From a virus: DNA of 64,000 nt. Shown piece after piece: positions 3,264-33,479 of this stretch. The first letter of the stretch is position 1, and the number at the start of each line of letters is the position of its first letter. The position numbers were made by a program, and so were the translations under genes. The stretch covers positions 14,512 through 78,511 of the IMG/VR virus record IMGVR_UViG_3300045988_183062; one strand, given 5' to 3'. Under the pieces are notes generated by a model. The model was not told where the DNA came from. It did no database searches and saw only the letters and a list, made by a program, of their open reading frames with translations.

Positions 3264-4601
3264 ATGAAATGTTTCTTGAAAAAGGCACTCGCGGTATGTC
3301 TCACGGCAACTACGCTATGTACATGCCTTGCAGGGTGCAAAAAGAAAGATGATGGCAGCGTATCGGACACTACGCCTATTCCGACACCGGCCATTGAAAG
3401 CACGCCTGAACCGTCTGCAAATCCGAACATTTACGGTGACGTTGACACATCAGGCGGCAACAAAATTCAAAACGGAAAGCTGGTTCTCACGAAGATTGAA
3501 CCTGCTGAGCCAAACAACTGCGCATCGAACGGCTATATGGAAGAAAAGAACCTGGATGGTACTTACCGCTATCAGGTCAAGGCGGAAACCGTTGCCGCCA
3601 AGAACCTTGTTCCGTATACGGATGCAAACGAAGCGGGTCTGAAAATCTTCTCTGGTCATACAGTCTATGTGCGTAAGACAGGCTTAGGCATTGGTGAGAT
3701 GCCTGAAGCTACGGTAGATGACTCCTCCAGTACAGAAGAAGTTATTACCGATACGACAACATCAACCGATACAAGTTCCGGCTACATTGACGAAAACGGC
3801 AATTATATTGAAGATGCCACTAATAGTAATGGAACAACATCTTCATCTACGCTTTCTGATACGGACCAGAAGTGCATTGTTTCCGGCGAGGAAGTATTTG
3901 ACCTTGACAACTACAGCGACGAAATCCAGTATCCTTCTGATTTCTCGCAGCTTCGCAAAGAGGGAACATGCGAGCGCCTTTACGTTTACCATTCGAAAGA
4001 GGAGTACGAACAAGCTCTCAAGAACCGCAAGAACGGTCAGGCTATTTTGACTGGCGAGATGGATGCGCCTATTAAAAGCGTCATCCTGAATGGTTCTCTG
4101 GTGCCCAAACTCAACTATACCATCAACAGCGACGGTCGCCTGTGTGTTTCTCTCCGTGCGCTGGCAGAGGCCTATGATTCCAATACACAGTATGACGATG
4201 TAGAGCATCTGCTTATTGTTCCTATCACATACGGTGAGCGCATCTATATCCCAGTCAAAGGCATTCTCCATAACGCCAGTGAGTATTACCAGATTGACAA
4301 TACAAACAACACCTTTGTGTTTACCAGCAAAAAACCGCCTGAGATTTGGACTGATACGTTCTCGCTCGCTACCACCAGTGATGTTGTGATGCCTGTCGAA
4401 GACATTGCCCGTATCCTTGGCTGGGATTTCTGGTATGGCGACAATGTCCTGAGCGTAGTTACTGATTCTCTCGACGACACGAAAGAAGAAAACATTCTGC
4501 TTCAGGAGCAGGATGTCGAAGAAATCGAAATTGATTTGAACGATTTACCTGATGTCGATAGTACGGCATCTGATTCAGAAAGTGAGGTGAGCGCATCGTG
4601 A
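3264..4601 (+). CDS. Surface lipoprotein (signal peptide with lipobox LAGC), Thr/Ser-rich linker
   Basis: N-terminus MKCFLKKALAVCLTATTLCTCLAGCKK; stop overlaps next gene start (ATGA at 4598). Confidence 0.65.
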   Translation: MKCFLKKALAVCLTATTLCTCLAGCKKKDDGSVSDTTPIPTPAIESTPEPSANPNIYGDVDTSGGNKIQNGKLVLTKIEPAEPNNCASNGYMEEKNLDGTYRYQVKAETVAAKNLVPYTDANEAGLKIFSGHTVYVRKTGLGIGEMPEATVDDSSSTEEVITDTTTSTDTSSGYIDENGNYIEDATNSNGTTSSSTLSDTDQKCIVSGEEVFDLDNYSDEIQYPSDFSQLRKEGTCERLYVYHSKEEYEQALKNRKNGQAILTGEMDAPIKSVILNGSLVPKLNYTINSDGRLCVSLRALAEAYDSNTQYDDVEHLLIVPITYGERIYIPVKGILHNASEYYQIDNTNNTFVFTSKKPPEIWTDTFSLATTSDVVMPVEDIARILGWDFWYGDNVLSVVTDSLDDTKEENILLQEQDVEEIEIDLNDLPDVDSTASDSESEVSAS

Positions 4602-6769
4602 CCAAATGGAACGAACTGAAGGTGAAGTTCTCTCTTCTTTCTAAAGAGGAGAAACTGGTCATCTTGTTCTGCTGCTCGTTTGTTGTTTCTCTTATCCCGG
4701 CGGGATTCATTGCGGCGGTATTTGCCGGAGAATGGGATGCGGGATTTTTCCGTAAGCTGTTTCTTAGCATTACAACCGGATATGGCATTATCTCGACTTT
4801 GATTTTCACTGCTGCCATTACATTTGTCATCGTGCTTCTTTCTCGGAAAAATACGGACCTCAACTCGGCAAAAGAAGTTGATGACCGTGGCATGATTACC
4901 TCCAATGCTGGTACTTACGGAACAGCAGAGTGGATGTCAGAGGACGAAGCCAAAAAGGTTTATGAGGTTGGCCCTGTTGAAGATGTGACGGGTACAATTC
5001 TTGGTCAGTTTACGACCGATGGCGAAGAAGTCATTGCTTTGCCGTATGAACCGACTGGCAACCGCAACCTTATCCTTATCGGACCTCCGGGCTCTGGCAA
5101 GTCGTTTGGCTATGTTCGTACTGCTGTGTTCCAGTCTATCGTACGCGGTGAGTCTGTAGTCGTTACTGACCCGAAGGGTGAAATTCACAATGATATGCGG
5201 AAATTACTCGAAGCAAACGGCTATAAGGTAAAGGTATTCAACCTCATCAACCTTGACCTTTCCAATGCCTGGGACTGCGTACAGGAAATCTATGACCCCA
5301 TTACGGGCAACATTGACGACCAGCGTGTTATTGCGTTCTGTAAGACCGTTATTGCCAATACAGGCGGTGGTGCAAACAGCAAGGGCGACCCGTTCTGGGA
5401 GAGTTCGGAAGAAAACTTGTTCCGTGTAGCCGTTTCTTACTGCGCCTATATGCGTGAGACGACCCTTATCAAAATCTATGAGCGCCGCACCAAAGAACTT
5501 CTTACGCAGCTGCCGTTCATTTCGGAAGAAGATGGCAAGGCACTGGTCGAAGCTGTTACAAATCCTGAATCTGCGATGGTGGACCGTCGCCGTGTTGTCG
5601 AGTACCTTGCCAAGAATCTCTATGGCGAGGAAGAAGGAGAGAAGAAGCTGCTGGCTTGGGAGGAAGACGCACCGACCAGCAACATTTCCGACATCTACAA
5701 CGCTCTGATGCACAATGACCTGAACTCTTGGGAAGAAAACTTCAAGAGCGTACCTATGAATCCCCCCGCCGCGTCTGCCTGGGCTGTATTCAAAGGCATG
5801 GGCGAGCGCGTACAGCCTAACATTGTCGGTGGCCTGAACACTCGTTTGCAGTTGTTTATGACCTTTAAGGTTCGCCGCGTTATCAGTAACGATGACATCC
5901 GCCTGGCAGACATTGGCGCTGAAAAGACCGCTCTGTTCCTGATTATCTCGGACGATAACGCATCCATGCAGCTGCTTTCTTCTCTGCTTCTGAGCTTCCT
6001 GTTTAAGGACCTGAAAGAGGCATTCGATGCCGTTGGCGGCGATGGTCGTATCCCTGTAAACGTCATTGCGGACGAGCTGGCAAATACCGGTGTCTGGCCC
6101 AACTTCGAGAAGACGATTGCTACCGCTCGTTCTCGCAAGATTGCAGTTTCCCTTATCTTGCAGAGCTTGCCGCAGTTGACGCAGTTGTATGGCGAGGAAA
6201 ACGCCGAAACCATCATTGGCTGCTGCAACACCATGCTTGTGCTGGGGTGCAACGATAAGTATACGGCCGAGTACATCTCCGACAAGAGCGGCATCGTTAC
6301 GATTCGTGCCAAGAGCGTGAGCGATTCCAGAGCAAATTCCGTTGGTTATCGCGGCGCTATGCAGGGATATTCTCTCAGTGAAGGCGATGGTAAACGCAAC
6401 TTGATGAACCCCGATGAAGTTCAGCACCTTGGCAAAGAAGAGATTCTGATTATGACAAACGGTCAGAACCTGCTGAAAGCCAAGCGCTTTGGCTTTATCC
6501 ATCATCCGCTGTTCTCCGACCCGCACTTTGTTCCGACACGCTGGTCCGAACTGCCTAAGACGGTTGACCTTTATCCCGATGCTCGTAAGCATGATGCTCT
6601 GGAGTCGCTGGTAGGTGACATCCAGCGCCAAAAGGAAGTCAATACGGAAATTGCGCAGAGACGTTCGGAAGTGCGTATGAATCCTCGTATGAGAAAGAGC
6701 GACCTTATCGGAAACGATAAAGTTCCTTCCAAGAAGAACGCTTTTGCAGACAAAGCTAAAAAGAAATAA
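4598..6769 (+). CDS. Type IV coupling protein, TraG/VirD4/TcpA-like ATPase
   Basis: N-terminal TM helices; Walker A LIGPPGSGKSF; Walker B-like hhhhDE (VIADELAN); size and context between T4SS genes. Confidence 0.8.
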   Translation: MTKWNELKVKFSLLSKEEKLVILFCCSFVVSLIPAGFIAAVFAGEWDAGFFRKLFLSITTGYGIISTLIFTAAITFVIVLLSRKNTDLNSAKEVDDRGMITSNAGTYGTAEWMSEDEAKKVYEVGPVEDVTGTILGQFTTDGEEVIALPYEPTGNRNLILIGPPGSGKSFGYVRTAVFQSIVRGESVVVTDPKGEIHNDMRKLLEANGYKVKVFNLINLDLSNAWDCVQEIYDPITGNIDDQRVIAFCKTVIANTGGGANSKGDPFWESSEENLFRVAVSYCAYMRETTLIKIYERRTKELLTQLPFISEEDGKALVEAVTNPESAMVDRRRVVEYLAKNLYGEEEGEKKLLAWEEDAPTSNISDIYNALMHNDLNSWEENFKSVPMNPPAASAWAVFKGMGERVQPNIVGGLNTRLQLFMTFKVRRVISNDDIRLADIGAEKTALFLIISDDNASMQLLSSLLLSFLFKDLKEAFDAVGGDGRIPVNVIADELANTGVWPNFEKTIATARSRKIAVSLILQSLPQLTQLYGEENAETIIGCCNTMLVLGCNDKYTAEYISDKSGIVTIRAKSVSDSRANSVGYRGAMQGYSLSEGDGKRNLMNPDEVQHLGKEEILIMTNGQNLLKAKRFGFIHHPLFSDPHFVPTRWSELPKTVDLYPDARKHDALESLVGDIQRQKEVNTEIAQRRSEVRMNPRMRKSDLIGNDKVPSKKNAFADKAKKK

Positions 6770-8599: not shown

Positions 8600-9726
8600 T
8601 GAACAAAGAAGAAAAGCAGCCAAATGTTTACATGATTCCGAAGAACTCGTTCGATACCGGCTACGTCTTTGGTGGTGCGTTCAAAACCAAGAACTTCATC
8701 GAAGGTGTTGTGGTAGCGATTCCATTTCTTGGAATCTTTATTTACGGGTGGACACAACTTGGCTGGGATGTGGAGTCTACCGTAGCCTACGCCGCAATCG
8801 TGTGTGCCGGAGTATTCGTAGCGGTGTCGCACGGCGTAGGGGATGACAGCTTCTTTGAGTTCTTGGCTCACGTAATTCATTTCCGCAAAAGTCGTAGAAT
8901 TTCCAAGTATAATCCGCGTATTAAAACAGAGCTCGAACCCGACTACCTGATGAAGGAAAACGGAATGCTCCCGAAGGAAAAACTGAAAGAAGCATGGGAG
9001 AACTTCAAGAAGAAGGTTCTTGGCGGCGGAGACGGCCCGATTAGTGCAGACATCACCGCTGATGATTTACAGATTTACTACGATGACGATGAGGACTTCG
9101 TAGAAAAGCCTGATGAGCTCAAAACAAAAGCAGAACTCAAAGCAGAAGCAAAGCAACGTGCAAAGGAAGAAAAGGAGTTTATCAATTCCTTGCCGCGCAA
9201 CCAACGCCGTGCTGCGCGTGCTGCTTTGAGGCAGAAGCATAAGGAAGAAGCCGAAGCTAAGAAGCGTCAAGAGGAAGAGCACGAAAAGATGGTTCAGGAA
9301 CGCATTAAGCGCCGTATCGAAAAGGCTGAACGTATCAAAGCTGCTCAGTATCGCGCCAAGTTAGTCGCTATGCAGCAGATGCAGCAACAGACTGACCCCA
9401 ACTTTATTCCTGCTCAATCCGAAGAACAGACGATGGATGTTGTGCTGGACGAAGTCGAAACCATTACCGAGACTCCTGAAATGAGTCTTGATGATGTGAC
9501 GCTGTTGGATGATACGACCTCTGCTGAACCGGAAGAAATTGATGTCAGTTTTGATGAGGAAGCAGCTCCTAATGGACCGTTCGTGCCACGCATCATCACG
9601 AATGAACGCGTGAAGAATCAGGCGGGACCGGTTATTCGTCCTTTGAAAGCCAAGCCTCAAATCTATAACAGTCACAATGGAGACTTTTCCGCTGATTCGT
9701 TCTCCATCTTTGACGACGAGGAGTAA
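8599..9726 (+). CDS. PrgI/Orf17/TcpE-like small T4SS membrane protein fused to long charged coiled-coil tail
   Basis: Two TM helices at N-terminus (VVVAIPFLGIFIYGW..; YAAIVCAGVFVAVS) immediately upstream of VirB4 gene; K/E-rich repeat region. Confidence 0.6.
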   Translation: MNKEEKQPNVYMIPKNSFDTGYVFGGAFKTKNFIEGVVVAIPFLGIFIYGWTQLGWDVESTVAYAAIVCAGVFVAVSHGVGDDSFFEFLAHVIHFRKSRRISKYNPRIKTELEPDYLMKENGMLPKEKLKEAWENFKKKVLGGGDGPISADITADDLQIYYDDDEDFVEKPDELKTKAELKAEAKQRAKEEKEFINSLPRNQRRAARAALRQKHKEEAEAKKRQEEEHEKMVQERIKRRIEKAERIKAAQYRAKLVAMQQMQQQTDPNFIPAQSEEQTMDVVLDEVETITETPEMSLDDVTLLDDTTSAEPEEIDVSFDEEAAPNGPFVPRIITNERVKNQAGPVIRPLKAKPQIYNSHNGDFSADSFSIFDDEE

Positions 9727-9735: not shown

Positions 9736-12444
9736 ATGTTTAGAAAGAAAAACAAACAGCAAGCTGTTCCGAATGGCGTTGTTGGGGACAGCTTGGAAAG
9801 CGTTCGTCTGACAAAGAAAGAGCGTGAAGAGATTGCCAACGCCGAACGTAAGCGTATCGACAAAGAGATGCAAGCCAATGCAGACCGGTATCAAATCGTT
9901 CGCAGTACACAACGCATCATTCCTGTTCAAGATATTTATAACGGCGTAATCATTACTAAAGACCACCGTTATGTGAAGATTCTTGAGTTTCGACCCATCA
10001 ACTTCGGTTACATGGATGCCGAGACACAGAACCGCATCATCTCACTCTTCTATCAGACTTTCAAGGCTGTTCCGGTCAACATCCAGTTCAAGACCTTCGC
10101 CCGTAAAGCAGATGTAGAGAAGACGATTGCTACAGTCACTTCCTATTATCGGGAAGAGACAAACATCAAACGCAAGCGGATGCTGAAAGCTTATATTGGG
10201 TTGCTTCGCAAGACGGCATTGTCCGTTGGCATCACGCGCCGCTTCTTTATCATCATCGAGTTTCAGCGCACCATCAGCAATGATGGCTCTAACTTTAATA
10301 TGGTTGTGGCGGACCTGAACGCAATGGCTGCCAACGTACGTTCCCACATGGAACAGTGTGGGAACATCTTTATCCCGGCGCTTGGTGACAGCAGCCGCAA
10401 CGAAGATGCCGGTATACACCAGCTGTTCTATCAGATGCTGAACCGTCGCAAGAGTGAGACGATTACGTTCCACGACCACGTTACGCCCATCATTGAACGC
10501 TATACCGAAGCGGATAAGAACGGCGTAAAGACCTCTCTGAATGCCACGGAATTGATTGCGCCCGACTGGATTGATTTTACCCATTATGACTATATTGTCA
10601 TTGATGGAAAGTTCTACACCTTCGCCTATATCCCGTCCACCGGCTATAATCAGCGTGTCTATGCTGGTTGGATTGCCACCTTCGTCAACGCTGGCGAGGG
10701 CGTTGATATGGATGTTTTCTTCGAACATCAGTCACGGGAAGCAGTCTACAACAAAATCAGTACGCAGCTTCGTTTGAGCCGTGCCAATGCAATGGATAGC
10801 CATGATACCGACTCGGATTATCATGCCCGCATGGAAAAGATTTCTTCCAGTGAATACATGCTGAAAGGTCTCTCCAGCGGTGAGGAATTCTATTACATGA
10901 GTATTCTTATCACCGTTGTTGGTGATAGTTTGGATGAGCTGGAATACAAATACAATTCCCTTGAAAAGCGCGTTAAAGGCCAGGGCATGAAGATTCGCCG
11001 TGCGAACTTTATGATGGAAGAGTGCTTTGAGTCTGCATTGCTTCCTCTTGGTAAGCTCCATAAGGACATCAAGCGCCGGGCACAGCGCAACGTACTGACC
11101 TCTGGTGTAGCATCTTGCTATCCGTTCATTTCCTTTGAAATGCAGGACCCTGATGGCGTTATGATTGGTACAAACCGTGCCAACAACTCCCTTGTCACTA
11201 TCGACATGTTCGATACAGACGTTCACGCCAATGCAAACGCTGTTATCCTCGGCTCTTCCGGTTATGGCAAGACCTTTACCGCACAGCTCTTTGCATTGCG
11301 TCTGTCTGAGATGGATACGCAAGTATTCGTCATCTCTCCGCTGAAGGGCTTGGAAGACTATGGCGGCGGATGTAAGGCGGTTGACGGTCAGTTCATCAGT
11401 ATGGACCCGTCTTCCATCAATAGCATCAACATCATGGACATCCGCGTGCCGGACGATGCGGATGCTAAAGAACTGGATGACTACGAGTCTACTGGTTCTC
11501 TGCTTACAAAGAAAATTCACACCATCAAGTCCTTCTTGCACTTGGTCGTTAAGGATATGACGCAGGAAGAGGAACAGCTTATTGATACGAGTCTTTACAG
11601 ATGCTATAAGGACTTCGGCATCACCAATGATAACGAATCGATTCTCGATAAAGAACACGGCGGTTATAAAAAGATGCCTCTGCTGGAAGACCTCCAAAAA
11701 GAGATGCAGAATGTTCCTGAACTCCATCGCATCTGCAATATCCTGAACCCGCTGATTACAGGTTCTATGGCATGCTACAACCGTCCCACGAATGTTGACC
11801 TGAAAGCAAAATACATCGTGTTTGACTTCAATGGCATGAAAGGCGCAATCCTTACAATGTCGATGTTTGTTGTTCTTGACTTTGTCTGGACCAAAATTAA
11901 AGAGGACCGTACGAAGCGCAAGGCCGTATTTATCGACGAGTGCTGGAAGCTGATTGGCACCGACTCGAACGAAATGGCAGCAGAGGACGTTGTAGAAATC
12001 TTCCGTACGATTCGTGCTTACGGTGGTTCGGCTTTCGCTATGACGCAGGACATCTCTCAGTTCTACGAGTATAAAGGCGGCAAGTATGGTAAGGCAATCA
12101 TCGGTAATGCTGACACCAAAATCATCATGCACCTTATCCCGTCTGAAGCGCAGGCATTGCAGTCGGCCATTCAGTTGACTGATGCGGAGATGGAAAATGT
12201 CTCCAACCTGCAACGTGGTCAAGGTCTGGTCTGTGCCGCTTCCGCCAAGCTGTTCGTTGACTTTGTTGCCGCACCTTATGAAAAGCAGGAAATCACGACA
12301 GATGCAAAGAGCTTCTATTTGCAAGAGAAAGCCCTCAAAGAGAAGCAGCACAGAGAAGAACAGGAACGCCTGGCTGCTGAAAACGCCAAAGGGGGGTCCG
12401 ACTCTAATAGCAATGACGAGGATTTGCTGAATGTGACATTCTGA
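9736..12444 (+). CDS. VirB4/TraE/PrgJ/TcpF-family conjugative ATPase
   Basis: Walker A ILGSSGYGKTF, Walker B AVFIDECWK, ~900 aa, follows PrgI-like gene as in Tn916/pCF10 layouts. Confidence 0.85.
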   Translation: MFRKKNKQQAVPNGVVGDSLESVRLTKKEREEIANAERKRIDKEMQANADRYQIVRSTQRIIPVQDIYNGVIITKDHRYVKILEFRPINFGYMDAETQNRIISLFYQTFKAVPVNIQFKTFARKADVEKTIATVTSYYREETNIKRKRMLKAYIGLLRKTALSVGITRRFFIIIEFQRTISNDGSNFNMVVADLNAMAANVRSHMEQCGNIFIPALGDSSRNEDAGIHQLFYQMLNRRKSETITFHDHVTPIIERYTEADKNGVKTSLNATELIAPDWIDFTHYDYIVIDGKFYTFAYIPSTGYNQRVYAGWIATFVNAGEGVDMDVFFEHQSREAVYNKISTQLRLSRANAMDSHDTDSDYHARMEKISSSEYMLKGLSSGEEFYYMSILITVVGDSLDELEYKYNSLEKRVKGQGMKIRRANFMMEECFESALLPLGKLHKDIKRRAQRNVLTSGVASCYPFISFEMQDPDGVMIGTNRANNSLVTIDMFDTDVHANANAVILGSSGYGKTFTAQLFALRLSEMDTQVFVISPLKGLEDYGGGCKAVDGQFISMDPSSINSINIMDIRVPDDADAKELDDYESTGSLLTKKIHTIKSFLHLVVKDMTQEEEQLIDTSLYRCYKDFGITNDNESILDKEHGGYKKMPLLEDLQKEMQNVPELHRICNILNPLITGSMACYNRPTNVDLKAKYIVFDFNGMKGAILTMSMFVVLDFVWTKIKEDRTKRKAVFIDECWKLIGTDSNEMAAEDVVEIFRTIRAYGGSAFAMTQDISQFYEYKGGKYGKAIIGNADTKIIMHLIPSEAQALQSAIQLTDAEMENVSNLQRGQGLVCAASAKLFVDFVAAPYEKQEITTDAKSFYLQEKALKEKQHREEQERLAAENAKGGSDSNSNDEDLLNVTF

Positions 12445-18133: not shown

Positions 18134-18922
18134 ATGCTTCTTCATATTTTTGGCGATACACATGGACCGGATGAGATTTTCAAAATCAATCCGAAATGGT
18201 TCCTTAACCGTGACATCACAAAAGATGATGCGATTGTTGTTTGCGGAGACTTCGGATTCCCGTTCTTTCCGACAGACCGCATCCCGGCGGACGACCTCAA
18301 GACACTGGACATGCCGCAACACTGTATCAAGTCGGCGCGAGCGTACCAGATGTACACCGACTGGATGAAGTCTTTTCCTTGCAATATCCTCTTCATCGAT
18401 GGTAACCACGATAACCACACCTTCTGGGCAGAGCAGCCTACCGAACGGTGGAACGGTGGCATGATTCAACGCCTGCCGGAAGCACCGAATGTCATCCACC
18501 TGATGCGTGGCGAATACTACACGATTGATGGCATGACTGTATGGTGCATGGGCGGTGCAGAGTCTATCGACAAAGCATACCGTACGGAAGGCGTCACTTG
18601 GTGGAGGGAAGAAGTCCCATCTCAGAAAGAGATGTGGCACGGTCTTGATACGCTGGAATCTCACGGAAACGAAGTGGATGTTATCCTTACGCACATGCTT
18701 CCACAGATGCTCATGCCAATCTATTTCAGAGACATCAGTCCGATTCACGACCCAACGGGCGTATACCTTGATGAAATCTACCGCCGGGTGAAGTTCAAAC
18801 AATGGTATTGCGGCCACATGCACCAAGACATCGATAAACCGATGTACAAGCTCAGAGTGCTGTACAACCAGATTGCGGAAATAAACACGGACGCCTTTGG
18901 GAAAGAAGGTGATAACCAATGA
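18134..18922 (+). CDS. Calcineurin-like metallophosphoesterase
   Basis: Motifs GDTHG, GDFGFP, GNHDNH. Confidence 0.75.
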   Translation: MLLHIFGDTHGPDEIFKINPKWFLNRDITKDDAIVVCGDFGFPFFPTDRIPADDLKTLDMPQHCIKSARAYQMYTDWMKSFPCNILFIDGNHDNHTFWAEQPTERWNGGMIQRLPEAPNVIHLMRGEYYTIDGMTVWCMGGAESIDKAYRTEGVTWWREEVPSQKEMWHGLDTLESHGNEVDVILTHMLPQMLMPIYFRDISPIHDPTGVYLDEIYRRVKFKQWYCGHMHQDIDKPMYKLRVLYNQIAEINTDAFGKEGDNQ

Positions 18923-19761
18923 GCGACATCTATGTGGCAGGAGATGTGCATGGGAACTACAAAGGCCTCATCGAATCCCTCGTAGCAGCCGGATGGAATG
19001 AAGGAACCGACAAGCTCGTCTTCGTCGGTGATGTAGTAGACCGTGGAAAGGAAAACGCAAAGGTCGTCAACTTCATTACGGAACATCCAGATACAGTCCA
19101 TCTCGTTCTTGGTAACCACGAATACGAACATAGGCAGATGCTTCGATACTATAAAACACTCGCACAGTCTCTGACCGTCAGAAAGCTCGCAGCCTGGGTA
19201 TTTCTGCACTACAGACAGGGAGAGAACATCTTCAGAACAAAAGAAGAACTCGAAGCGCTCAGATGCGGCATGGAGGAGAGAAAGAATATTCTCGCCGCAA
19301 GACCTCATACATTCGCTGGGTGGCAAAAGCTCTTCATCACCTACACTCTCGCGTGGGAGAATGATGGGCTTTGGCAGATTGTCGTATACTTGCTTGACAA
19401 TATGTGTGGCACACCGTATGAAGCAGAGCATACCATCTACGAGTACCTGTCTGGTACGAAAAAGACGAGAGAGAACTTTGAAGTTATCTTCGAGAATCAG
19501 GCACAGGAACTCAACATCACACCTCTGCCTGGCTCTCGATTCAAACAAGTCGTAGTGACACACAACAATCCGTTCGGTCGAGTCTTTGATTATGATAAAG
19601 ACGAAATGCTGACCGGTCATCGGGATACGCTCTATATTTTTGGACACATCCCTCATAAAGAAATCACTCGCATGGACAGACCTAACTCCGGCTGCACATA
19701 CCTCGACATTGATACATCTCCATACGGAGTATCCGTCATTAAGCTATCTAACTATCTCTAA
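18919..19761 (+). CDS. Metallophosphoesterase of PPP/ApaH-like type
   Basis: Motifs GDVHGN, GDVVDRG, GNHE; start overlaps previous stop (ATGA). Confidence 0.75.
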   Translation: MSDIYVAGDVHGNYKGLIESLVAAGWNEGTDKLVFVGDVVDRGKENAKVVNFITEHPDTVHLVLGNHEYEHRQMLRYYKTLAQSLTVRKLAAWVFLHYRQGENIFRTKEELEALRCGMEERKNILAARPHTFAGWQKLFITYTLAWENDGLWQIVVYLLDNMCGTPYEAEHTIYEYLSGTKKTRENFEVIFENQAQELNITPLPGSRFKQVVVTHNNPFGRVFDYDKDEMLTGHRDTLYIFGHIPHKEITRMDRPNSGCTYLDIDTSPYGVSVIKLSNYL

Positions 19762-19771
19762 ATAACGATAC

Positions 19772-19815
19772 GCACGTCATAGGGGCCTACGGGCTTCTGT
19801 GACGTGCTTTTCTTG
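19772..19815 (+). terminator. Rho-independent terminator
   Basis: gcacgtcata..tgtgacgtgc hairpin followed by TTTTCTTG. Confidence 0.65.
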
Positions 19816-20232
19816 TTGTACGGGAAGAATGTCGGACTAAACGCTCGGAACCTCGTAGCAGGCAGCCTTGTGGCGCTGTGAAGGGAAACCAAAGGGAATA
19901 ATAATGCTGTGACTTACACGAATAGTTACACGCGTGTAAGCCATAGACGAATCCTGTTGCACGGCGTGTAAGTTCTCTTTGTGCTGGATGAACTACGGCA
20001 ATAGGCATGGTCCAGTACATCCGGCACGCGCTTCATAGCGTGCAAGCGCTGCCAGACATCATATCAGAGCAGCCAACCATGACACAGTTGGCAAGCAACT
20101 CTATGTGGGAGCCGAGTGCGGCGTTCACGCAAACCACAAACAGTAGAACGGAACTCGTTGTAAAAAGTGCCGGAATCAGCAAAAACTCGTCGGGAAAATG
20201 TGAAGCTTGCCGTACACGGAAAAGCGTGGCGA

Positions 20233-20261
20233 TTGATAAATACCGCAACATGTCGTATAAT
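20233..20261 (+). promoter_or_regulatory. Sigma70-type promoter TTGATA-17-TATAAT
   Basis: Consensus hexamers 46 nt upstream of ATG 20307. Confidence 0.55.
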
Positions 20262-20306
20262 GTTGTATTAGAGAAATCTGGCGCAACCCAGACAAAGGAG
20301 AACACG

Positions 20307-22451
20307 ATGGGCAAAAGCAAGGCAAAACACAATAGCAAGAAACCAACTGGCAGCTTCAAAGAACGATGCAAACAAGCGGTACTGAAGAACATAGCTGGAT
20401 TCGGCGGTGAGATTGAGAAGGACCCATCCCTTGCCTTTGAGTTTGACATCGACAACAAAACAATAGACCGGCGAGTGGAAGCTATTGCTGAAACACGAGA
20501 CATGGCAGTAGCTATTGCCAAAGAATATATACCGGAAGACCTTGAGGTACGATACGAGGCCGAATGGGTCCGCCTGAATATGGTGATGACACCTCCGTTC
20601 AACATAGGCGAGCGGCAGTTCAATTACTCGCTCGCTGCGGCCATCTGGATACTGGACACCATCAGAGCAAACCACAAGATGGATGAGGCCCTCGCTTTGC
20701 TGCCAAAGGACGAGGAAAAGCTCGCGTCTATCGAACTACCGTCTTGTGTATCGCCTTGTTATAGTGAAGCCGTAATTCGCAGTATGGTTTATGTCATCCT
20801 GCATCGAAACGAGGATTGTGTCGGCATCAACAACCCGGAGAAGCCTCCGCTCAAGTATCCTGTTACAGACAGCTATACCGTTGCGGGTAAGCAGCATCAG
20901 AATGTACTGTCCAGAAATGTGTTTGATACCATTATTGGCTTGCTCCCGGAAGACAAGGTCGATAATGCTGTAAATACGTATGCCATACAGGTAAGGGGAG
21001 CCATAAGTCGTTATTTCTGTTGCCGCTCCAAGTGGGTCAAGGAAGAAAAGAAATGCCTGGATGAAATCCATCGCCTTGATGACGAGCTTAATAAAGTGAG
21101 TGACGAGGCAAATGCTTTTTCCAAAAAGACGCATTCTATGGTCAAGGCAAAAGCCATGCCGCTTGCTAAAAATAATATGCCTGGAGTCGGCGCGAAAGCC
21201 GAAATGACCATCGGGCTCCATTCTATTGCAGAACGCGGAGAAACTATCGTTGCAAAGTTAGAGGCAATGCAAACCAAGCTCCAAAAGCTCAACGAGTTGG
21301 AAAGAGACTTTGCTTATGATAGTGCCGAATGCGCCTATTGGACAGAAGAAACATGGACAAAGAAATACTCGACGGCCGTAGCAAAACGTGCGGTGAAGTT
21401 TGAAGTCATGGACCCGTATGCAGTATGCTTCGCATTCTATTACATGATAGATAACGGCGATAATCTTCCGTGGCTTTACTATCCATCCTGTGTGCTTCTC
21501 TCCCACGCAGCGGCACAACTACCGTGGTGTGGAGGAGCAGTCAAACAATGCGTGGATGCAACAGGTCAAACCACTTTCTATATTGATGCCAATACAGCCA
21601 AGCTCCATCTGATGGAAGACAACCTAACAAGCGATAGTAGTGTTGTGCCAATCTGCTGGAATACGATGTCCTTGGTACAACAAGAAGGTGCAGACGCAAA
21701 TACTCCCGTGCGTATAACCCCGGCGGCCGCCGTATACACCTATACCGATGGAGTCCTCGTTCCACGTAACACAGCCAGCGCAGACCCGATAGAAGCAACA
21801 CTTGCCGATTTGGGTGTGACAGCGCCAGAAGGTAGAGCTGTATACGCCGCATACATATCTCTACTGTCCAACCTAAAAGGCCGCATCGATTTTCCCAACG
21901 ACGCAAAAGATGAGTGCGATGCTCTACGTGCCAAATGCGATGCGTATGAAGCAGAGATTGAGAATCTCAAGAGTAAGGATGAAAAGAATAAGCAGGCACT
22001 CTATAAAGCTGAAAAGACAATCGGTGAGCTGACTACTGCCATAGAGAAGGCTTCTGCAGAACACGAGAAAGAAAAGCAAGAGCTGAACGACCTTCGTGAG
22101 CTTGTGTTTGCGCTGACCAATGACGCAGACTCTGCCGCCAGGAAAGATTCCAAGACGCAGGTAGAGTTCCCGTACCACACCACCAAGAAGCACATCGTCT
22201 TTGGCGGACATCCTTCCTGGCTGAAGGCAATACGGCCGATGGTGCCGGATGTGAAATTCGTGGATGGAGTTCCGAGCACTGAACAAATCAAGGGCGCGGA
22301 CATCGTATGGCTGCAAACCAACTACCTCTCCCATAAGGCTTTCTACAAAATCATCGACATTGTCCGCAGCAAGAACATCCCGCTGCGCTATTTTACTTCC
22401 GCCTCCGCTGCAAAATGCGCAGAGCAGGTAGTCAATGCGGACCAGCAATAA
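20307..22451 (+). CDS. Large hypothetical protein: N-terminal unique region, coiled coil, C-terminal ~100 aa alpha/beta domain with VFGGHP motif (shared with 24043-25743 protein)
   Basis: RBS AAAGGAGAACACG before ATG 20307; heptad-like segment (EAEIENLKSKDEKNKQALYKAEKTIGEL..); C-terminal HIVFGGHPSWL..ADIVWLQTNYLSHKAFYKII. Confidence 0.6.
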   Translation: MGKSKAKHNSKKPTGSFKERCKQAVLKNIAGFGGEIEKDPSLAFEFDIDNKTIDRRVEAIAETRDMAVAIAKEYIPEDLEVRYEAEWVRLNMVMTPPFNIGERQFNYSLAAAIWILDTIRANHKMDEALALLPKDEEKLASIELPSCVSPCYSEAVIRSMVYVILHRNEDCVGINNPEKPPLKYPVTDSYTVAGKQHQNVLSRNVFDTIIGLLPEDKVDNAVNTYAIQVRGAISRYFCCRSKWVKEEKKCLDEIHRLDDELNKVSDEANAFSKKTHSMVKAKAMPLAKNNMPGVGAKAEMTIGLHSIAERGETIVAKLEAMQTKLQKLNELERDFAYDSAECAYWTEETWTKKYSTAVAKRAVKFEVMDPYAVCFAFYYMIDNGDNLPWLYYPSCVLLSHAAAQLPWCGGAVKQCVDATGQTTFYIDANTAKLHLMEDNLTSDSSVVPICWNTMSLVQQEGADANTPVRITPAAAVYTYTDGVLVPRNTASADPIEATLADLGVTAPEGRAVYAAYISLLSNLKGRIDFPNDAKDECDALRAKCDAYEAEIENLKSKDEKNKQALYKAEKTIGELTTAIEKASAEHEKEKQELNDLRELVFALTNDADSAARKDSKTQVEFPYHTTKKHIVFGGHPSWLKAIRPMVPDVKFVDGVPSTEQIKGADIVWLQTNYLSHKAFYKIIDIVRSKNIPLRYFTSASAAKCAEQVVNADQQ

Positions 22452-25938: not shown

Positions 25939-27207
25939 ATGGCAAAAGAACGAGCCATCCTTCATTGCGATATGAACTGCTTCTATGCCAGCTGTGAGAT
26001 GGCCTACTATCCTGAATTACGGGACAAGCCGATTGCCGTGTGCGGTGACCCAGAACGGCGGAGTGGCATCGTATTGACCGCTTCATACCCGGCCAAGCGG
26101 ATGGGCGTGAAAACCGGTATGCCGCTTTGGGAGGCGCAGCAGCATTGCAGAGACATCACCTTTGTTCCGGCTCACTATGACCTATACACCCGATTCAGCG
26201 GCTACACCAGAGAAATCTTCCTGCGCTATACAGACCAAGTCGAACCGTTTGGCTTGGACGAGGCCTGGCTCGATTGTACCGCGAGTCAGTCTCTCTTTGG
26301 GACAGGGGAGGAGATAGCAAAGAAAATCTCCGACACCGTCAAGGACGAACTCGGCATTACCTGCTCGGTCGGAGTCAGTTGGAATAAAACGATGGCAAAA
26401 CTCGGCTCGGACTATAAAAAGCCGGATGCTATTACGGTCATCAACAGGCAGAACTTCGAGAAGATAGTTTTTCCGCTGCCTGCTTCGGATTTGCTATATG
26501 TAGGAAAGAAAACGGCTGCCAAGTTAGATAACTATGCTATACATACCATTGGAGACTTGGCAAAGACCAGACCTCAGTTTCTGCAGGAGAAGCTCGGCAA
26601 GGTGGGGCTCTTGCTCTGGAGGTTTGCCAACGGCCTGGATTCTGACCCGGTGGCAAAGTACGAGCAGCGGGAGGTGCTTGCTCCCATCAAGAGCATCGGA
26701 AATAGCTGGACGACACCACGGGACTTAAAGACCGACCAGGATGTTTGGATAGTGCTTTACCTGCTCGCAGAGAGTGTCGCGGCACGCCTCCGAGAGAACC
26801 ATTTCCGATGCCGAGGCGTGGAGGTGAGTTTGAGAGACTCCAACCTATTCAGCTTCGAGCGCCAGATGAAACTGTCCCTACCGACAATGCAGGAGCAGGA
26901 GATAGCGACGGCCGCGTTCACGTTATATAAAAAGCACTATCATTGGAGCGAGCATCTTCGTTCCATTGGCGTGCGGGCCATAGACCTACAGCCGGATACG
27001 GAGCCTTGCCAAATCTCGTTCGACTTCAGTGCCGAAAAGCAAGAAGAGATGGAACGCTTAGAATCTGCCATTGATGGGGTCAGAAACCGATTTGGATACT
27101 ATTCTGTACAGCGAACCGTGATGTATAAGGACCGACTCCTCTCGCATTGCGACGCGAGGGCAGACCATACGATTCACCCACACGGATACTTACAAGGGAG
27201 CATATAA
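25939..27207 (+). CDS. Y-family DNA polymerase (UmuC/DinB-like)
   Basis: N-terminal HCDMNCFYASCE motif (cf. DMDAFFASVE), typical length. Confidence 0.8.
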   Translation: MAKERAILHCDMNCFYASCEMAYYPELRDKPIAVCGDPERRSGIVLTASYPAKRMGVKTGMPLWEAQQHCRDITFVPAHYDLYTRFSGYTREIFLRYTDQVEPFGLDEAWLDCTASQSLFGTGEEIAKKISDTVKDELGITCSVGVSWNKTMAKLGSDYKKPDAITVINRQNFEKIVFPLPASDLLYVGKKTAAKLDNYAIHTIGDLAKTRPQFLQEKLGKVGLLLWRFANGLDSDPVAKYEQREVLAPIKSIGNSWTTPRDLKTDQDVWIVLYLLAESVAARLRENHFRCRGVEVSLRDSNLFSFERQMKLSLPTMQEQEIATAAFTLYKKHYHWSEHLRSIGVRAIDLQPDTEPCQISFDFSAEKQEEMERLESAIDGVRNRFGYYSVQRTVMYKDRLLSHCDARADHTIHPHGYLQGSI

Positions 27208-27210
27208 TCC

Positions 27211-27483
27211 ATGCCAGAACAGAGAATCAAGAAATATGTTGAGGTCATCGCTGACTTTCAGCCGGACGGAACACTCATACCACAGACCGTTATCTGGGAT
27301 ACGGGCCAACGCTTCGACATCACAAACATTTCGGAGGTGATGCCGCGCAAATACTCTAAGACCGGCGGTGTGGGGGTACGCTATACATGCCAGATTGGCA
27401 GAGCCAGCACATATCTCTATTATGAAGTAGATAAATGGTTCGTGGAAGCACGAAAAAGCGCCACAGCAGCAGACCCTTGTTAA
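27211..27483 (+). CDS. Small protein immediately downstream of Y-family polymerase (possible accessory subunit)
   Basis: ATG 4 nt after polymerase stop. Confidence 0.45.
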   Translation: MPEQRIKKYVEVIADFQPDGTLIPQTVIWDTGQRFDITNISEVMPRKYSKTGGVGVRYTCQIGRASTYLYYEVDKWFVEARKSATAADPC

Positions 27484-27505
27484 GGCCCACCACCGTGGCG
27501 TGCGG

Positions 27506-27814
27506 TTAGCATAATACCGCGTCTCTGACATCCATGTAATCCCAGATGATGTCGAGCACTTTCTTTTTAGGGGTATCCTCCTCAAGTTGAGAGGCGTTCC
27601 GCAGGAGTTCATGCACAGATAAGCCAAGATACTCAGCAATCTGCTTCATCTGCGGATACGTCGCAAGTACACGGCCGCATAAAAACCTTTCTGCCTCGAC
27701 TTCCTGGCATCCGAGCAGGGAAGCAACAGAGGACACTGAAACATTCCGCTCTTCCATTTTCTGCCTGATATAAGCACCCAGCATTCGTGCATTTGGCACA
27801 AGAATCACCTCCAA
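27506..27814 (-). CDS. XRE/Cro-C1-type helix-turn-helix transcriptional regulator
   Basis: HTH segment VSSVASLLGCQEVEAERF; minus strand. Confidence 0.65.
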   Translation of the reverse strand: MEVILVPNARMLGAYIRQKMEERNVSVSSVASLLGCQEVEAERFLCGRVLATYPQMKQIAEYLGLSVHELLRNASQLEEDTPKKKVLDIIWDYMDVRDAVLC

Positions 27815-27820
27815 ATGAGG

Positions 27821-28204
27821 TCAAGCCTCCTCGTCAGGAGACTCAGTGTCTTCACTCGCCAGCTGACGCATAGCACGGCGGAACTCGACCAGCTCCTTCT
27901 TTGTCAGAGCGCTTGTAACCATAGCAGCGTAGAACTCCGGACGGCTCATAGCTGCGACAAAGGTTCTCGCATAGGTCTTACCTGCGCGGACCATACCATC
28001 TTCCTTAATACAGCCTTTCTTCATCAAGGAATTGATGATGGCGAAGATGGAACGCTCTTTCCAGAACAGGTCACCATTCTCTTTCACATGGTCAAGGATA
28101 TCCTGCTGGCACAGCGGCTTTTTGCTGTTCCAGAAAGCCTTCATAACGGTTTCCTCTGCGGGAGTCAAATGATACGGACGGGGCGCATGGCTGGAAGCTG
28201 CCAT
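27821..28204 (-). CDS. BlaI/MecI/CopY-family winged-helix repressor
   Basis: LTPAEETVMKAFW...DILDHV.. pattern characteristic of penicillinase-repressor family; minus strand, co-oriented with XRE gene. Confidence 0.7.
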   Translation of the reverse strand: MAASSHAPRPYHLTPAEETVMKAFWNSKKPLCQQDILDHVKENGDLFWKERSIFAIINSLMKKGCIKEDGMVRAGKTYARTFVAAMSRPEFYAAMVTSALTKKELVEFRRAMRQLASEDTESPDEEA

Positions 28205-28346
28205 AACAAACACCAACTTTCATTGTTATTCTGTAATGCTGATTTCAATTATACGGAATTGCGCTAATTCGTCAATATCGTCACTTTAATTATGAACGAC
28301 ATTGACAAAAGATGATAAATTGTCCAATTGACAGAAAGGAGCCTGT

Positions 28347-28871
28347 ATGGGAAAATTTAAGAAGCAAACATGCTGCTTTACGGGGCATCGAGACATTCCG
28401 CCGGGCGAGCAGACAAAGATACTGACCAGGGTAAGGCACCGGCTTATCCCGCTTGTTCAGAGCGGAATCATCTACTATGGAGTGGGTGGTGCTTTAGGGT
28501 TCGATACCCTCGTAGCTGAGATGCTTATTGAGCTGAAGAAAGAAAACAGCCGCCTGCGTATCATCGAGGTGCTTCCCTTTGAAGGCTACCGCGACCGATG
28601 GACTCCAGAACAGCAGCTCCATGCCAAGAACTTAGACAAAAAGATGGACAAAATCGTCTATGTCAGTAAAGAACCGAGCAAGAGCGCTTACTTGACCCGT
28701 GACCGCCACCTGGTTGATTGCTCCGACTACTGCATCTCTTACTGCACGAAACAAACGGGAGGTACAGCCTATACTGTGAAATACGCTCTTGAGAAACAGT
28801 TGACGGTCTATAACGCATCATCGTTCGATGTGACATCATTACTCGGAGCAGCACCTCTTCATCACAAATAA
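28347..28871 (+). CDS. SLOG/DUF1273(YpsA)-like Rossmann-fold protein (tentative)
   Basis: N-terminal CCFTGHR motif and size ~170 aa; RBS AAAGGAG. Confidence 0.45.
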   Translation: MGKFKKQTCCFTGHRDIPPGEQTKILTRVRHRLIPLVQSGIIYYGVGGALGFDTLVAEMLIELKKENSRLRIIEVLPFEGYRDRWTPEQQLHAKNLDKKMDKIVYVSKEPSKSAYLTRDRHLVDCSDYCISYCTKQTGGTAYTVKYALEKQLTVYNASSFDVTSLLGAAPLHHK

Positions 28872-31030: not shown

Positions 31031-31261
31031 GCGGAATTGGGTTCCGGTGGGTCTTAACCTCTTCCTGCCGGTGTTTACGGTGTTGTTTTCTCTCACTCTT
31101 ACATGTTGTGTGGTCCGCTTGTATTCACCCCATCGGCTTTTTCCTGGGCCGGTGGTTCATATAAAAGGCTGTGGTTGCTTTTGCTTCCGCAGCTTTTTTG
31201 TTTGTATTCGCGCCTGCACAAAAGACAGGCATTGGTTGTGATGAGCGAAAGGAGTATGAAT

Positions 31262-32947
31262 ATGGCGCTTATCATCGGGATTGTAGCAGTCCTTATTATC
31301 ATCTTCGGCTTTCTGTGCTACAAGAAGGCCCCTCCGACGGAGGCTATCGTCGTGACCGGCTTTGGGTTGTCAAAGCCCAAAGTAGTATCCGGTAAAGGCA
31401 CGTTTGTGCTTCCTGTCTTGCAACGAGCAGACAAACTGAACATGCGGCTTCTGAAGATTGATGTCAAGACCCCGGAAACAGGCGTTAAGACTCAGAATGG
31501 TGTCAGCCTTTGGATTGATTCTGTTGTGACGATTCAGGTTTACAGTGAGAACTCCACTGTGTTGGACGATGAGGTCAAAGCATCTGGTCTGAAGGACGCC
31601 AAGGCGTATATCATGTCCCGCCAGCAGGCAGCTATCTCGAACTTCTTGGGCATGAACGAGCAGGGCATCAACGACAAGGTCAATGACGTTCTGCAGGGCA
31701 ACCTGCGTGAGATTGTCTCCGACATGACCGTTGACCAGATTCTGACAAACCGCAAGCAGATGGCACTGAGCGTCATTGAGAACGCTCGTCCAGACCTCGC
31801 CAAGATGGGCCTTGAGGTCGTGACCTTCAATGTTCAAGACATTAGGGACGCGATTGATGCACAGGGCCACAATCACGGTGTCATCGAAGCTATCGGCATC
31901 GAGCAGGAAGAACTGGTGAAGAAGCAGGCTGAGATTGCTCGTGCCCAGGCTGCTCGCGATGTGGCATGTGCCAAAGCAGATGCTGAGATGGCAGCGAACG
32001 CCAAGGAAGTTGAAGCCCAGACCGCTATCGCACAGCGCAACAACGAGTTGCAGCTTGCCAAGGCAAAGCTGAAGGCAGAAGCTGACAAGGCTGCGGCCGA
32101 CGCAGATGCTGCCGGTCGTATCCAGATGAACCTCCGTGCCAAGGAAATCAAAGAAGCTGAGGCTGACGCAGAGATTGCCAAGCAGAAAAAGATGGTTGAC
32201 CTTGCTGCGCAGGAAGCAGAAGTTCAGCAGCGTAAGTTGGACGCAGAAGTTCGTAAACAGGCTGATGCAGACCTGTACCGCCGTCAGAAAGAGGCGGAGG
32301 CCAAGAAGTACGAGGCTGAGCGTGCGGCCGAGGCTACCAAGTTCGCCAAGCAGCAGGAGGCAGAAGGCATCGAGATGGTCGGTAAAGCTGAGGCTGAAGC
32401 CATTCGCCAGAAAGGTCTGGCAGAGGCCGAAGCCATGAAACAGAAAGCCGAAGCCTACAAACAGTACAACGATGCGGCCGTGGCTGAAATGCTCATTAAG
32501 GTTCTGCCCGACATCGCCAAGAGCGTGGCTCAGCCGCTGTCCAGCATCGACAAGGTCTCCATCATCGGCGGCGATGCCTCCGGCGTATCCGGCGTTTCCG
32601 GTAACGTCCCGGTGCTCATGGCACAGACCATGCAGACGGTGAAGGAAGCCACCGGCATTGATATGGGCGAGATTGTTCGCGCCAATAGCATCCAGGCCAA
32701 GACGGACCGCAACATCCATATCGATGGTGTGGAGTTGGACGAGCCGAAAACTCACATCACCTCCGAGCGTGTCGAAGATGGTTGGATGTTCCATGAGAAG
32801 GACCCCATCACCGGTGAGGACAAAACTTCTTTCCGTCCCGATTTTACGGACGAGGAAAAGGCCATCATAGATGCTCACGCCAAGGCAGCTGAGAATCATG
32901 CTACCACCAACAAAACCAATCCGTATAAAAAGGGCTTCAATAAATAA
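31262..32947 (+). CDS. Flotillin/SPFH (band-7) domain membrane protein with long Ala/Glu/Lys-rich coiled coil
   Basis: RBS AAAGGAG before ATG 31262; N-terminal TM then SPFH-like core; EA-repeat coiled-coil typical of FloT/YuaG. Confidence 0.7.
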   Translation: MALIIGIVAVLIIIFGFLCYKKAPPTEAIVVTGFGLSKPKVVSGKGTFVLPVLQRADKLNMRLLKIDVKTPETGVKTQNGVSLWIDSVVTIQVYSENSTVLDDEVKASGLKDAKAYIMSRQQAAISNFLGMNEQGINDKVNDVLQGNLREIVSDMTVDQILTNRKQMALSVIENARPDLAKMGLEVVTFNVQDIRDAIDAQGHNHGVIEAIGIEQEELVKKQAEIARAQAARDVACAKADAEMAANAKEVEAQTAIAQRNNELQLAKAKLKAEADKAAADADAAGRIQMNLRAKEIKEAEADAEIAKQKKMVDLAAQEAEVQQRKLDAEVRKQADADLYRRQKEAEAKKYEAERAAEATKFAKQQEAEGIEMVGKAEAEAIRQKGLAEAEAMKQKAEAYKQYNDAAVAEMLIKVLPDIAKSVAQPLSSIDKVSIIGGDASGVSGVSGNVPVLMAQTMQTVKEATGIDMGEIVRANSIQAKTDRNIHIDGVELDEPKTHITSERVEDGWMFHEKDPITGEDKTSFRPDFTDEEKAIIDAHAKAAENHATTNKTNPYKKGFNK

Positions 32948-32989
32948 CTGAAGTTCTTTCACACAGTCCCTGCGGGGGCTGTTGCCGCT

Positions 32990-33030
32990 TTAAGAAGACA
33001 GCCTCCACGGGGCGAGCGGCGGGCAACGGG
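32990..33030 (+). repeat. GC-rich structured intergenic repeat, copy 1 (GCCTCCACGGGGCGAGCGGCGGGCAACGG)
   Basis: About 80% identical to 35530-35570; embedded in inverted-repeat hairpins, no T-run. Confidence 0.5.
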
Positions 33031-33080
33031 AAAGGCTCCTGGCGAATAGTCTTCAGAACGAAAAAGAAGGGGAGAAAGCC

Positions 33081-33479
33081 ATGAAAACACAACAGGTCCC
33101 AAACTCTCCCTATTTCATCCATTACGACGATAACGGTTATTACAATGTATCCAAAGATAAGGATGGCAAAGAGCCAATTCCGGAGTCTGAGATGCAAGAG
33201 TTTCTCAGCGCGGTCGCCAATGGTTTGCTCTACATCGAGCAGGAACGAAAGAACAGATACCAGCGTATTGACGAAGCGGAAAAAGCTGCTTTTGCCAGAG
33301 GAGAAGCGAAAGGCAGAGAGGATAAACTCATTGCCACGGTCAAGACGTTGGAGGAAAAACAAGCATTAAGGGAAGAGCAAGAGCGTAAGGCAGACTACGA
33401 AGCGTATACTCATTCTCCGTATTACTGGGGGACAAGGACAGAGTGGGTTCGCCTTTCTCGTGGAGGATGGTGTGATTAA
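33081..33479 (+). CDS. Hypothetical protein
   Basis: RBS GAAGGGGAG. Confidence 0.5.
   Translation: MKTQQVPNSPYFIHYDDNGYYNVSKDKDGKEPIPESEMQEFLSAVANGLLYIEQERKNRYQRIDEAEKAAFARGEAKGREDKLIATVKTLEEKQALREEQERKADYEAYTHSPYYWGTRTEWVRLSRGGWCD

Follow-up and report, generated by a model that had tools for sequence, protein, structure and literature searches.

What is the role of a pair of closely spaced palindromes in the longest gene-free gap of a large gut element whose genes mostly lack a family assignment? The gap (19762-20306) lies in a 64,000-nucleotide stretch, here called the window, of IMG/VR virus record IMGVR_UViG_3300045988_183062 (positions 14,512 to 78,511), which is part of a conjugative element (~245 kb) of Clostridia in the human gut, whose family ranges from ~235 to 270 kb in size and is common in human-gut metagenomes. 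A preliminary description of this DNA had pointed to a 14-bp palindrome with flanking half-sites in the gap and had proposed a CopY/BlaI-type operator bound by a BlaI-family repressor of the same element or, as an alternative, an origin of transfer (oriT) or of replication. We retrieved 82 related loci (1.37 Mb in total, contigs up to 375 kb), nearly all of them from human-gut metagenomes, and compared them with the window. The sites exist, are constrained in sequence and fixed in spacing, form a single cluster in the sampled DNA, and are linked by position to the gene of a 714-aa protein in two lineages. We tentatively read this cluster, at 19912-19971, as a putative phased array of double-stranded DNA (dsDNA) binding sites for a dimeric protein, which may be a distal control module for the operon beginning at 20307.

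The cluster is built from five heptads, one in a single forward half-site (H0), two in a perfect palindrome (P1) and two in an imperfect one (P2). The palindrome and half-sites of the preliminary description are all present, with the refinement that the last half-site, CGTGTAAGT at 19965-19973, is part of the second dyad, P2. H0 is located 12 bp upstream of P1, and the centres of P1 and P2 lie 31.5 bp, or three helical turns, apart. The P1 14-mer is unique in the window even at up to 2 mismatches; TTACACG has seven copies in the 64 kb, four of which fall within 58 bp in the cluster, and CACG-N0-2-CGTG has no occurrence in the window outside the cluster. To be fair to a motif chosen after the fact, we asked in how many of 60 dinucleotide shuffles some 7-mer, counted together with its reverse complement, reaches four or more copies within 60 bp, and this happened in one; judged on the cluster alone, a chance origin is unlikely but not negligible, and its conservation in relatives is a stronger argument for a real feature than these copy statistics. 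A literature search found no occurrence of the palindrome, and an exact-pattern scan of IMG/VR for GTTACACGCGTGTAAGC returned one more member of the window lineage and two unrelated high-GC contigs, which we take as chance matches (one lies within an open reading frame, ORF).

Comparison with related elements, which the preliminary description had suggested, shows the palindrome cluster to be conserved, with all five heptads kept in 10 of the 10 elements that share the spacer. The spacer can be aligned only within the window's own lineage (blastn; nhmmer), and an nhmmer search with it over the 1.37 Mb of related loci gave matches in that lineage only, whose members are L011 (100%), L006, L009, L013, L008, L010, L007, L089 and L086, with L001 and L088 more distant; the latter two form the single deep branch by which conservation is tested. 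Changes in the heptads are confined to transitions at positions 2 and 3 (TTACACG, TCACACG, TTGCACG, TCGCACG), the last three of these occurring as variants of the P1 left arm, which gives the consensus TYRCACG, and the CACG/CGTG core is invariant in all relatives. Variable columns within the cluster are fewer in the half-sites (4/35) than in the spacers between them (10/23; Fisher p=0.010). The 5-nt and 17-nt spacers of the cluster change in sequence, transversions included, while keeping a constant length, and the flanks carry many indels. In L001, the cluster segment is 76% identical, as against 62% at the four-fold sites of the adjacent gene. Judging from these alignments, the pattern is the signature expected of a sequence-specific, spacing-sensitive site.

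A second lineage carries the same arms. Across the related loci, TTACACG clusters were found, besides the window lineage, in loci of the L033 type only, and in both cases they lie upstream of a gene of the 714-aa family, which is the sole neighbour common to the two motif-bearing lineages. In L033 (9831-9858), the site reads AGTTACACG-N14-CGTGTAAGC and is located 140-165 bp upstream of the orthologue (51% protein identity), within flanks that cannot be aligned; its arms are those of P1, flanking bases included, but a 14-nt insert separates them. Five loci (L033, L042, L044, L045 and L060) carry the pair in perfect form, L079 differs by one change, and in L031 the pair is decayed. The site lies ~55 nt upstream of the -35 element of a promoter (TTGCAA-17-TATAAT) that is oriented divergently and serves the gene of a 626-aa protein, in the centre of which is an HTH_3 domain. 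We rejected this protein as the binder, since the window encodes no full-length homologue of it and the XRE regulator found there is not similar to it.

In the reading that we favour, and that we hold with caution, the half-site T-Y-R-C-A-C-G would be bound in dsDNA by a dimeric, probably cooperative, sequence-specific protein. P1 and P2 would face the same side of the helix because their centres are three turns apart, and H0 would add an extra half-site. The array sits in an insulated spacer, composed of a terminator, ~420 bp and a strong promoter driving a conserved operon, and could control the promoter at 20233 from a distance by cooperative binding, by looping or as a roadblock to read-through. 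Protein binding, the identity of the protein and the transcriptional output of the array are what we infer from this layout. Several observations weigh against it. In the window and the related loci, no gene for a DNA-binding protein was seen to occur only together with the motif. The nearest promoter is 270-300 bp away from the array, a long way for a simple bacterial operator, and this distance is not free of indels in relatives; the candidate promoter-proximal sites GTACACG (20212) and CGTGCAA (20039) are not conserved. The 14-nt gap between the arms in the L033 type argues against the proposal, being incompatible with the dimer geometry of P1, as does the decay of that site in L031 and, in part, in L079. 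A hairpin or cruciform could likewise explain arms that are conserved around variable spacers, and a single array in the sampled DNA is as typical of origins, centromeres and recombination sites as of operators. Phylogenetic profiling found no window ORF confined to the motif-bearing lineages; the one that came close, at 49257-49682, looks like a lipoprotein and was dropped as a candidate binder. Because the 714-aa gene is the only neighbour of the motif in both lineages, the array could instead be a cis-acting handle of its own operon (centromere-, oriT- or loading-site-like), recognised by the 714-aa coiled-coil/DUF2325 protein and its partners, a proposal that we regard as a long shot.

Table 1. 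Features of the spacer, its downstream gene and the BlaI-like regulator locus (window coordinates)
Feature	Position	Strand	Description
Intrinsic terminator	19772-19815	+	16-pair stem (19772-19807) plus T-run; ends the upstream operon; 96-98% identical in all relatives
Segment A	19816-19905		Variable: alternative alleles and large indels; 58-99% identical to relatives
H0, single forward half-site ACTTACACG	19912-19920	+	Kept in 10/10 relatives; TCACACG in L001 alone
P1, perfect 14-bp palindrome TTACACGCGTGTAA (TTACACG/CGTGTAA)	19926-19939		Left arm varies at positions 2 and 3 only; right arm invariant
P1-P2 spacer, 17 nt	19940-19956		8/17 columns variable, including transversions; 0 indels in any relative
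P2, imperfect palindrome TTGCACG-G-CGTGTAA	19957-19971		Right arm CGTGTGA in L001 and L088
Segments C and D	19976-20150		C moderately conserved; D (20046-20150) is a second alternative-allele region
Promoter-upstream block	20151-20232	+	Conserved; direct repeats AACTCGT at 20152 and 20184, 32 bp apart; A-tracts
Sigma-70-type promoter	20233-20261	+	TTGATA-17-TATAAT; 11/12 consensus positions; invariant in all relatives
First gene of the downstream operon	20307-22451	+	714-aa coiled-coil protein with a C-terminal DUF2325-like domain
XRE-type helix-turn-helix regulator	27506-27814	-	HTH_31, E=1.4e-6; downstream of the BlaI-like gene and co-transcribed with it
BlaI/MecI/CopY-family (Penicillinase_R) regulator	27821-28204	-	PF03965, 40.7 bits (cut-off 22.6), E=3.4e-10, residues 17-130
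Promoter of the BlaI-like gene with inverted repeat GTCAATATCGT / ACGACATTGAC	28248-28306	-	TTGACG-16-TATAAT at 28275-28248; no TYRCACG

The operator first proposed for this site would require the BlaI-like repressor to be a variant that accepts wider spacing, and we rate this as very improbable. The sites do contain TACA...TGTA, the lineage has a gene of the Penicillinase_R family, and the number of dyads, two, is that of bla/cop control regions (PMC7253601). However, the operator of the BlaI/CopY family is KACA-NN-TGTM, with a 2-nt spacer, and TACANNTGTA itself is an unreliable predictor of operators (PMC7253601), whereas the spacing here is 4 nt in P1 (TACA-CGCG-TGTA) and 5 nt in P2 (TGCA-CGGCG-TGTA); TACA-N0-8-TGTA occurs at six sites in the 64 kb (4.97 expected), none of them with a 2-nt spacer, and KACANNTGTM is absent from the window. 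The TACA bases drift in the 10 relatives (CACA, TGCA, CGCA), the variable positions being exactly the T and the A; the promoter region of the repressor itself (28205-28346) contains neither TYRCACG nor TACANNTGTA; and the cluster, rather than overlapping a promoter, lies well upstream of the -35 at 20233 (262-321 bp). Gene and motif also fail to travel together: homologues (50-58% identity) are found before YpsA, at the corresponding syntenic position, in more than 25 loci from which the motif is missing, the five loci with a perfect L033-type pair have no BlaI-like gene within up to 10 kb on either side, and L008 keeps the cluster intact although its BlaI and XRE genes are deleted, a weak point, as that deletion may be recent. 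Spacing, drifting TACA bases, the gene's own promoter and co-occurrence are thus all contrary to the CopY/BlaI assignment, and the BlaI-like gene is probably outside the palindrome system. That the cluster has no present function at all, being a product of chance or the relic of a lost divergent promoter that is kept by close kinship, seems to us rather unlikely. The frequency of comparable clusters in shuffles (~1/60 for four copies of some 7-mer), the reliance on one deep branch and the decay of the site in L031 would all fit it, but variation is significantly lower in the half-sites than in the intervening spacers, and the P1 arms recur upstream of an orthologous gene in a lineage whose flanks are unalignable. 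A centromere-like or recombination site (a parS/parC-type array, or res/dif-type) is improbable as well. It would account for a repeat array that is single in the sampled DNA, has heptads pointing either way and shows arm spacings of 0, 1 and 14 nt, and the downstream operon encodes two long coiled-coil proteins; we also take the array to resemble the box A heptads of the parS site of P1 (the plasmid system, as distinct from palindrome P1), the heptads of omega repressors and the subsites of resolvase res sites, and the half-site GTTACAC to resemble the chromosomal parS half-site GTTTCAC. The heptads do not form a contiguous run, though, the likeness to parS needs a 2-3-bp insertion at the dyad centre, and no ParA, ParB, ParM, TubZ, ribbon-helix-helix (RHH) or recombinase domain was found beside the cluster or elsewhere in the window.

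The remaining alternatives place the function in single-stranded nucleic acid. One holds that the region is a cis-acting site in single-stranded or extruded DNA, either an oriT with inverted repeats and a nick site or a single-strand origin (sso) for complementary-strand synthesis after transfer, and we consider it unlikely. The element, which has VirD4-like and VirB4-like genes, is conjugative; the gap is the longest non-coding one in the window, insulated by terminator and promoter; its inverted repeats have a single occurrence in the sampled DNA; and the + strand of the window folds better than shuffles (z -3.5 as RNA and -2.5 as DNA, with -0.7 for the - strand). The sso of ICEBs1 offers a precedent, lying in an intergenic gap and being defined by structure and not by sequence (PMC4595007). 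Yet the fold excess is not conserved, with z about 0 in L001, equal values on both strands in L007, and again z about 0 for the analogous spacers in the 56% lineage; in the long stems, segment A pairs with segment D, yet the alleles of the two show no co-variation, and local hairpins are not unusually stable. Against shuffles, the 80-nt fold of the cluster scores z about -1 for either strand, whether in the window or in L001, so that it is the sequence of the cluster and not the stability of its stems that is special. Inverted repeats are present in the region; its only nick-like string, ATCCTG (19951-19956) in the P1-P2 spacer, which we presume to resemble the MOBP nick core, has changed to ATGATG in L001 and L088. 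Pfam searches of ~70 window ORFs gave no relaxase-family match, a divergent relaxase being possible among them, and no relaxase was found in the ORFs across ~16 kb upstream of the window's left end in the related L083 and the more distant L090; the same ORFs yielded no Rep, ParA/ParB or recombinase domain. Of the hallmarks of ssoA, RSB (TTATGCCGAGAAAATTT) and CS-6 (TAGCGT) (PMC4598088), RSB has no match in the region with up to 3 mismatches allowed and CS-6 lacks conservation, the TAGCGT at 20034-20039 reading TAGCGA, TGGCGG or TAGTGG in relatives, and ssoA was set aside. The spacer has no blastn match in phage and plasmid collections, including any PLSDB plasmid. For a replication origin, the cumulative GC skew is flat over 18-30 kb without an extremum, direct-repeat families yielded only short two-copy matches, and there is no Rep domain nearby. 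The origin suggested in the preliminary description thus received no support, as neither a relaxase or Rep protein nor a GC-skew inflection was found in the scans made. A structured RNA, either a small RNA or a second terminator formed by a P1:P2 hairpin followed by U-rich TTCTCTTTGT, has a low probability in our view. The + strand excess (RNA z = -3.5) would fit it, RNAalifold pairs P1 with P2 in a 14-bp stem, one pair between H0 and the right arm of P2 runs from U-A through U-G to C-G in L088 and L001, and a sister lineage has a promoter-plus-terminator cassette at the same intergenic position. But 19816-19910 holds no promoter-like site and the stretch is deleted in L007, L010 and L089; the best Rfam score is 16.8 bits against a cut-off of 36.5, and two sister spacers gave no Rfam match; the RNAalifold covariation term is only -1.94 kcal/mol; two-sided changes affect 10 pairs, where shuffles gave 6.6 +/- 1.6, and the structure scored had come from the window sequence itself; the key P1/P2 pair shows all four base combinations; and L001 has no fold excess, local folds staying at z about -1. 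As a general explanation, folded RNA or single-stranded DNA was rejected on an unconserved + strand excess (z -2.2 to -3.5), stems that span independently recombining segments and the lack of an Rfam match.

The gap proved to be non-coding, as the preliminary description had it, with both the terminator and the promoter that it had placed there. Upstream lies an operon with two calcineurin-like phosphoesterase genes (18134-19761). On the downstream side, the promoter is followed by an AAGGAG ribosome-binding site at 20295-20300 and the ATG at 20307. The reading frame of the 714-aa gene is open for 100 codons upstream of 20307, back to 20007 and through the promoter, but homologues of the protein are 709-718 aa long, so the start at 20307 (714 aa) is correct and the extension to 20007 is non-coding. 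Every ORF within the gap is disrupted in relatives, by 1-nt indels or by indels of 28-48 nt or 41 nt, which shows the region to be non-coding. Public gene calls of close homologues are over-extended, to 733 aa (P0001) and 791 aa (P0002).

The spacer on either side of the cluster is a mosaic. Segment A, which evolves about neutrally, has a 28-48-nt deletion in L007, L010 and L089 and a 41-nt insertion in L001 and L088; segment D is 54-64% identical in L013, L008 and L001. The alleles of A and D (54-77% identity) are combined freely with one another and with the flanking genes, which are 98-99% identical between elements with shuffled A and D alleles; between L013 and the window, the four-fold sites of the downstream gene are 99.7% identical and segment D is 64% identical. 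Sharply different alleles among elements with near-identical flanks indicate, as far as these alignments go, frequent recombination within the spacer. Segment C contains a degenerate third copy, GCGTGCAAG (20038-20046), which is not conserved in relatives.

Other lineages show further arrangements in front of the orthologous gene. A terminator-like hairpin, GAGGTCACC-N6-GGTGGCCTC with a T-run, is conserved at 9891-9922 in L033 and in ~40 other loci, directly before the promoter of the orthologous gene (TGGTATAAT, with an extended -10) whatever lies upstream. It looks like an insulator for the operon of the 714-aa family, and the terminator of the window lineage may have a corresponding role. 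The corresponding spacer of a sister lineage contains a cassette resembling a small RNA gene (L034, 9650-9807), with a promoter (TTGACA-17-TATAAT, 9650-9678), ~90 nt and then a strong intrinsic terminator (9768-9807). The same cassette occurs in L032, L036, L038, L039, L043, L046, L053, L055, L061, L063 and L076, and a search of Rfam with it gave no match.

The operon from 20307 is conserved and comprises the gene for the 714-aa protein, three further ORFs and a Y-family polymerase gene. The 714-aa family is known only from metagenome assemblies. Sequence searches of Pfam, NCBIfam, PHROGs and PDB returned only coiled-coil noise and DUF2325, and an AlphaFold model with a predicted local distance difference test (pLDDT) score of 55 gave no Foldseek match below E=0.09. 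A second DUF2325-containing protein (572 aa) is encoded in L090 (7557-9275), just upstream of a RecD2-like helicase and type IV secretion system (T4SS) genes, with DUF3854, signal peptidase S26 and YqaJ-like exonuclease genes among its neighbours. No TYRCACG dyads were found upstream of this gene, where the spacer holds two terminators and a promoter.

The BlaI-like gene is real: its assignment and its pairing with an XRE regulator, both made in the preliminary description, are confirmed by Pfam and by its neighbours. In the window and in sister lineages, these are the XRE regulator, a 90-aa ORF, a Y-family polymerase and YpsA, and no BlaR1/MecR1 sensor-protease lies beside it, again as described; its C terminus (...RQLASEDTESPDEEA) has no CopY-type CxC metal site. 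The XRE gene is found in L011, L009, L007, L010 and L001 only, that is, in the window lineage, and its co-occurrence with the cluster is for that reason trivial. The promoter of the BlaI-like gene, TTGACG-16-TATAAT, is conserved across lineages at 50-58% protein identity, and in lineages of the L004 type it is flanked by another inverted repeat, AACAATAT / ATATTGTT. These promoter-flanking repeats, together with GTCAATATCGT/ACGACATTGAC in the window, would be better candidates for the operator of the BlaI-like or XRE regulator. The deletion in L008 spans 2 kb relative to the window (26520-28538); it truncates the Y-family polymerase gene at its 3' end and YpsA at its 5' end, and it takes out the 90-aa ORF, the XRE gene and the BlaI-like gene.

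Nearly all genes of the window are on the + strand. Its transfer genes include those of a VirD4-type coupling protein (4598-6769) and a VirB4-like ATPase (9736-12444), and the window also encodes an M23 peptidase. One protein of the T4SS region is indexed in 407 blocks of a public assembly collection, often on contigs of ~245 kb (245,646, 246,236, 234,952 and 252,531 bp). Loci assigned to the element family include L083, L084, L011, L008 and L090-L094; some related contigs are filed as viral genomes in IMG/VR, and in a species-level genome set only one metagenome-assembled genome (Clostridiales) carries the family. Elsewhere in the window, the sole Rfam match at gathering level is a hepatitis delta virus (HDV)-like ribozyme (RF02682, HDV-F-prausnitzii; 32984-33055, + strand; 47 bits against a gathering score of 44), in a 130-nt gap between a flotillin/SPFH-like gene (31103-32947) and an ORF at 33081. 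Accessory genes include one with a NADAR domain (43463-43972, E=1.6e-28), an RlaP-type nucleotidyltransferase (52479-53486), a Mor-family activator (56719-57342) and a metallo-beta-lactamase-fold protein with a weak match to anti-Pycsar Apyc1 (61399-62556).

The result is a modest one, a conserved motif of protein-binding type in a regulatory spacer and thus a familiar kind of feature in an uncharacterised element. Its value lies in that host, a conjugative element widespread in the human gut, for which a selected cis site of single occurrence is a practical entry to a first regulator or DNA-processing protein of the family. The locus also shows TACA...TGTA to be a poor predictor of BlaI/CopY operators, in agreement with the CopY literature (PMC7253601).

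Among known systems, the oriT and sso regions of Gram-positive conjugative elements, such as sso1 of ICEBs1 (PMC4595007), are likewise intergenic, a few hundred base pairs long, rich in inverted repeats and set among co-oriented genes. They differ from the spacer described here, in which no adjacent relaxase, conserved nick-like sequence or conserved strand-specific fold was found, and the RSB and CS-6 of ssoA are absent or not conserved. With the bla-mec operators and the cop box, the cluster shares short A/T-flanked dyads with TACA...TGTA, two per control region, in an element that also carries a Penicillinase_R-family gene. There, the spacing is 2 nt around TACA/TGTA and the sites lie over the -35 and -10 elements, whereas here the spacing is 4-5 nt, the core is CACG/CGTG, the sites are 270-300 bp away from any promoter, the promoter of the regulator has no site, and regulator and motif do not co-occur across lineages. 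Centromeres made of heptads or boxes, such as box A of P1 parS and the WATCACW heptads bound by omega in pSM19035, resemble the cluster in their 7-bp unit, CAC core, mixed orientations and presence once in the examined DNA, and differ in that the heptads here are non-contiguous and that neither a partition ATPase gene nor an RHH/ParB gene was found in the vicinity. Phased dyads also characterise multi-site repressor operators: OR and OL of lambda, the sites of RcoLS20 on pLS20 (heptamers in two operator clusters, with looping) and NrdR boxes, which are ~31 bp apart. Compared with these, the array described here has no conserved second cluster near the promoter and no adjacent cognate repressor gene, and its binding is predicted only. 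The likeness is in the overall design, with several 7-8-bp motifs in both orientations and dyads an integral number of helical turns apart, all upstream of a strong promoter and a long co-oriented operon in a mobile element.

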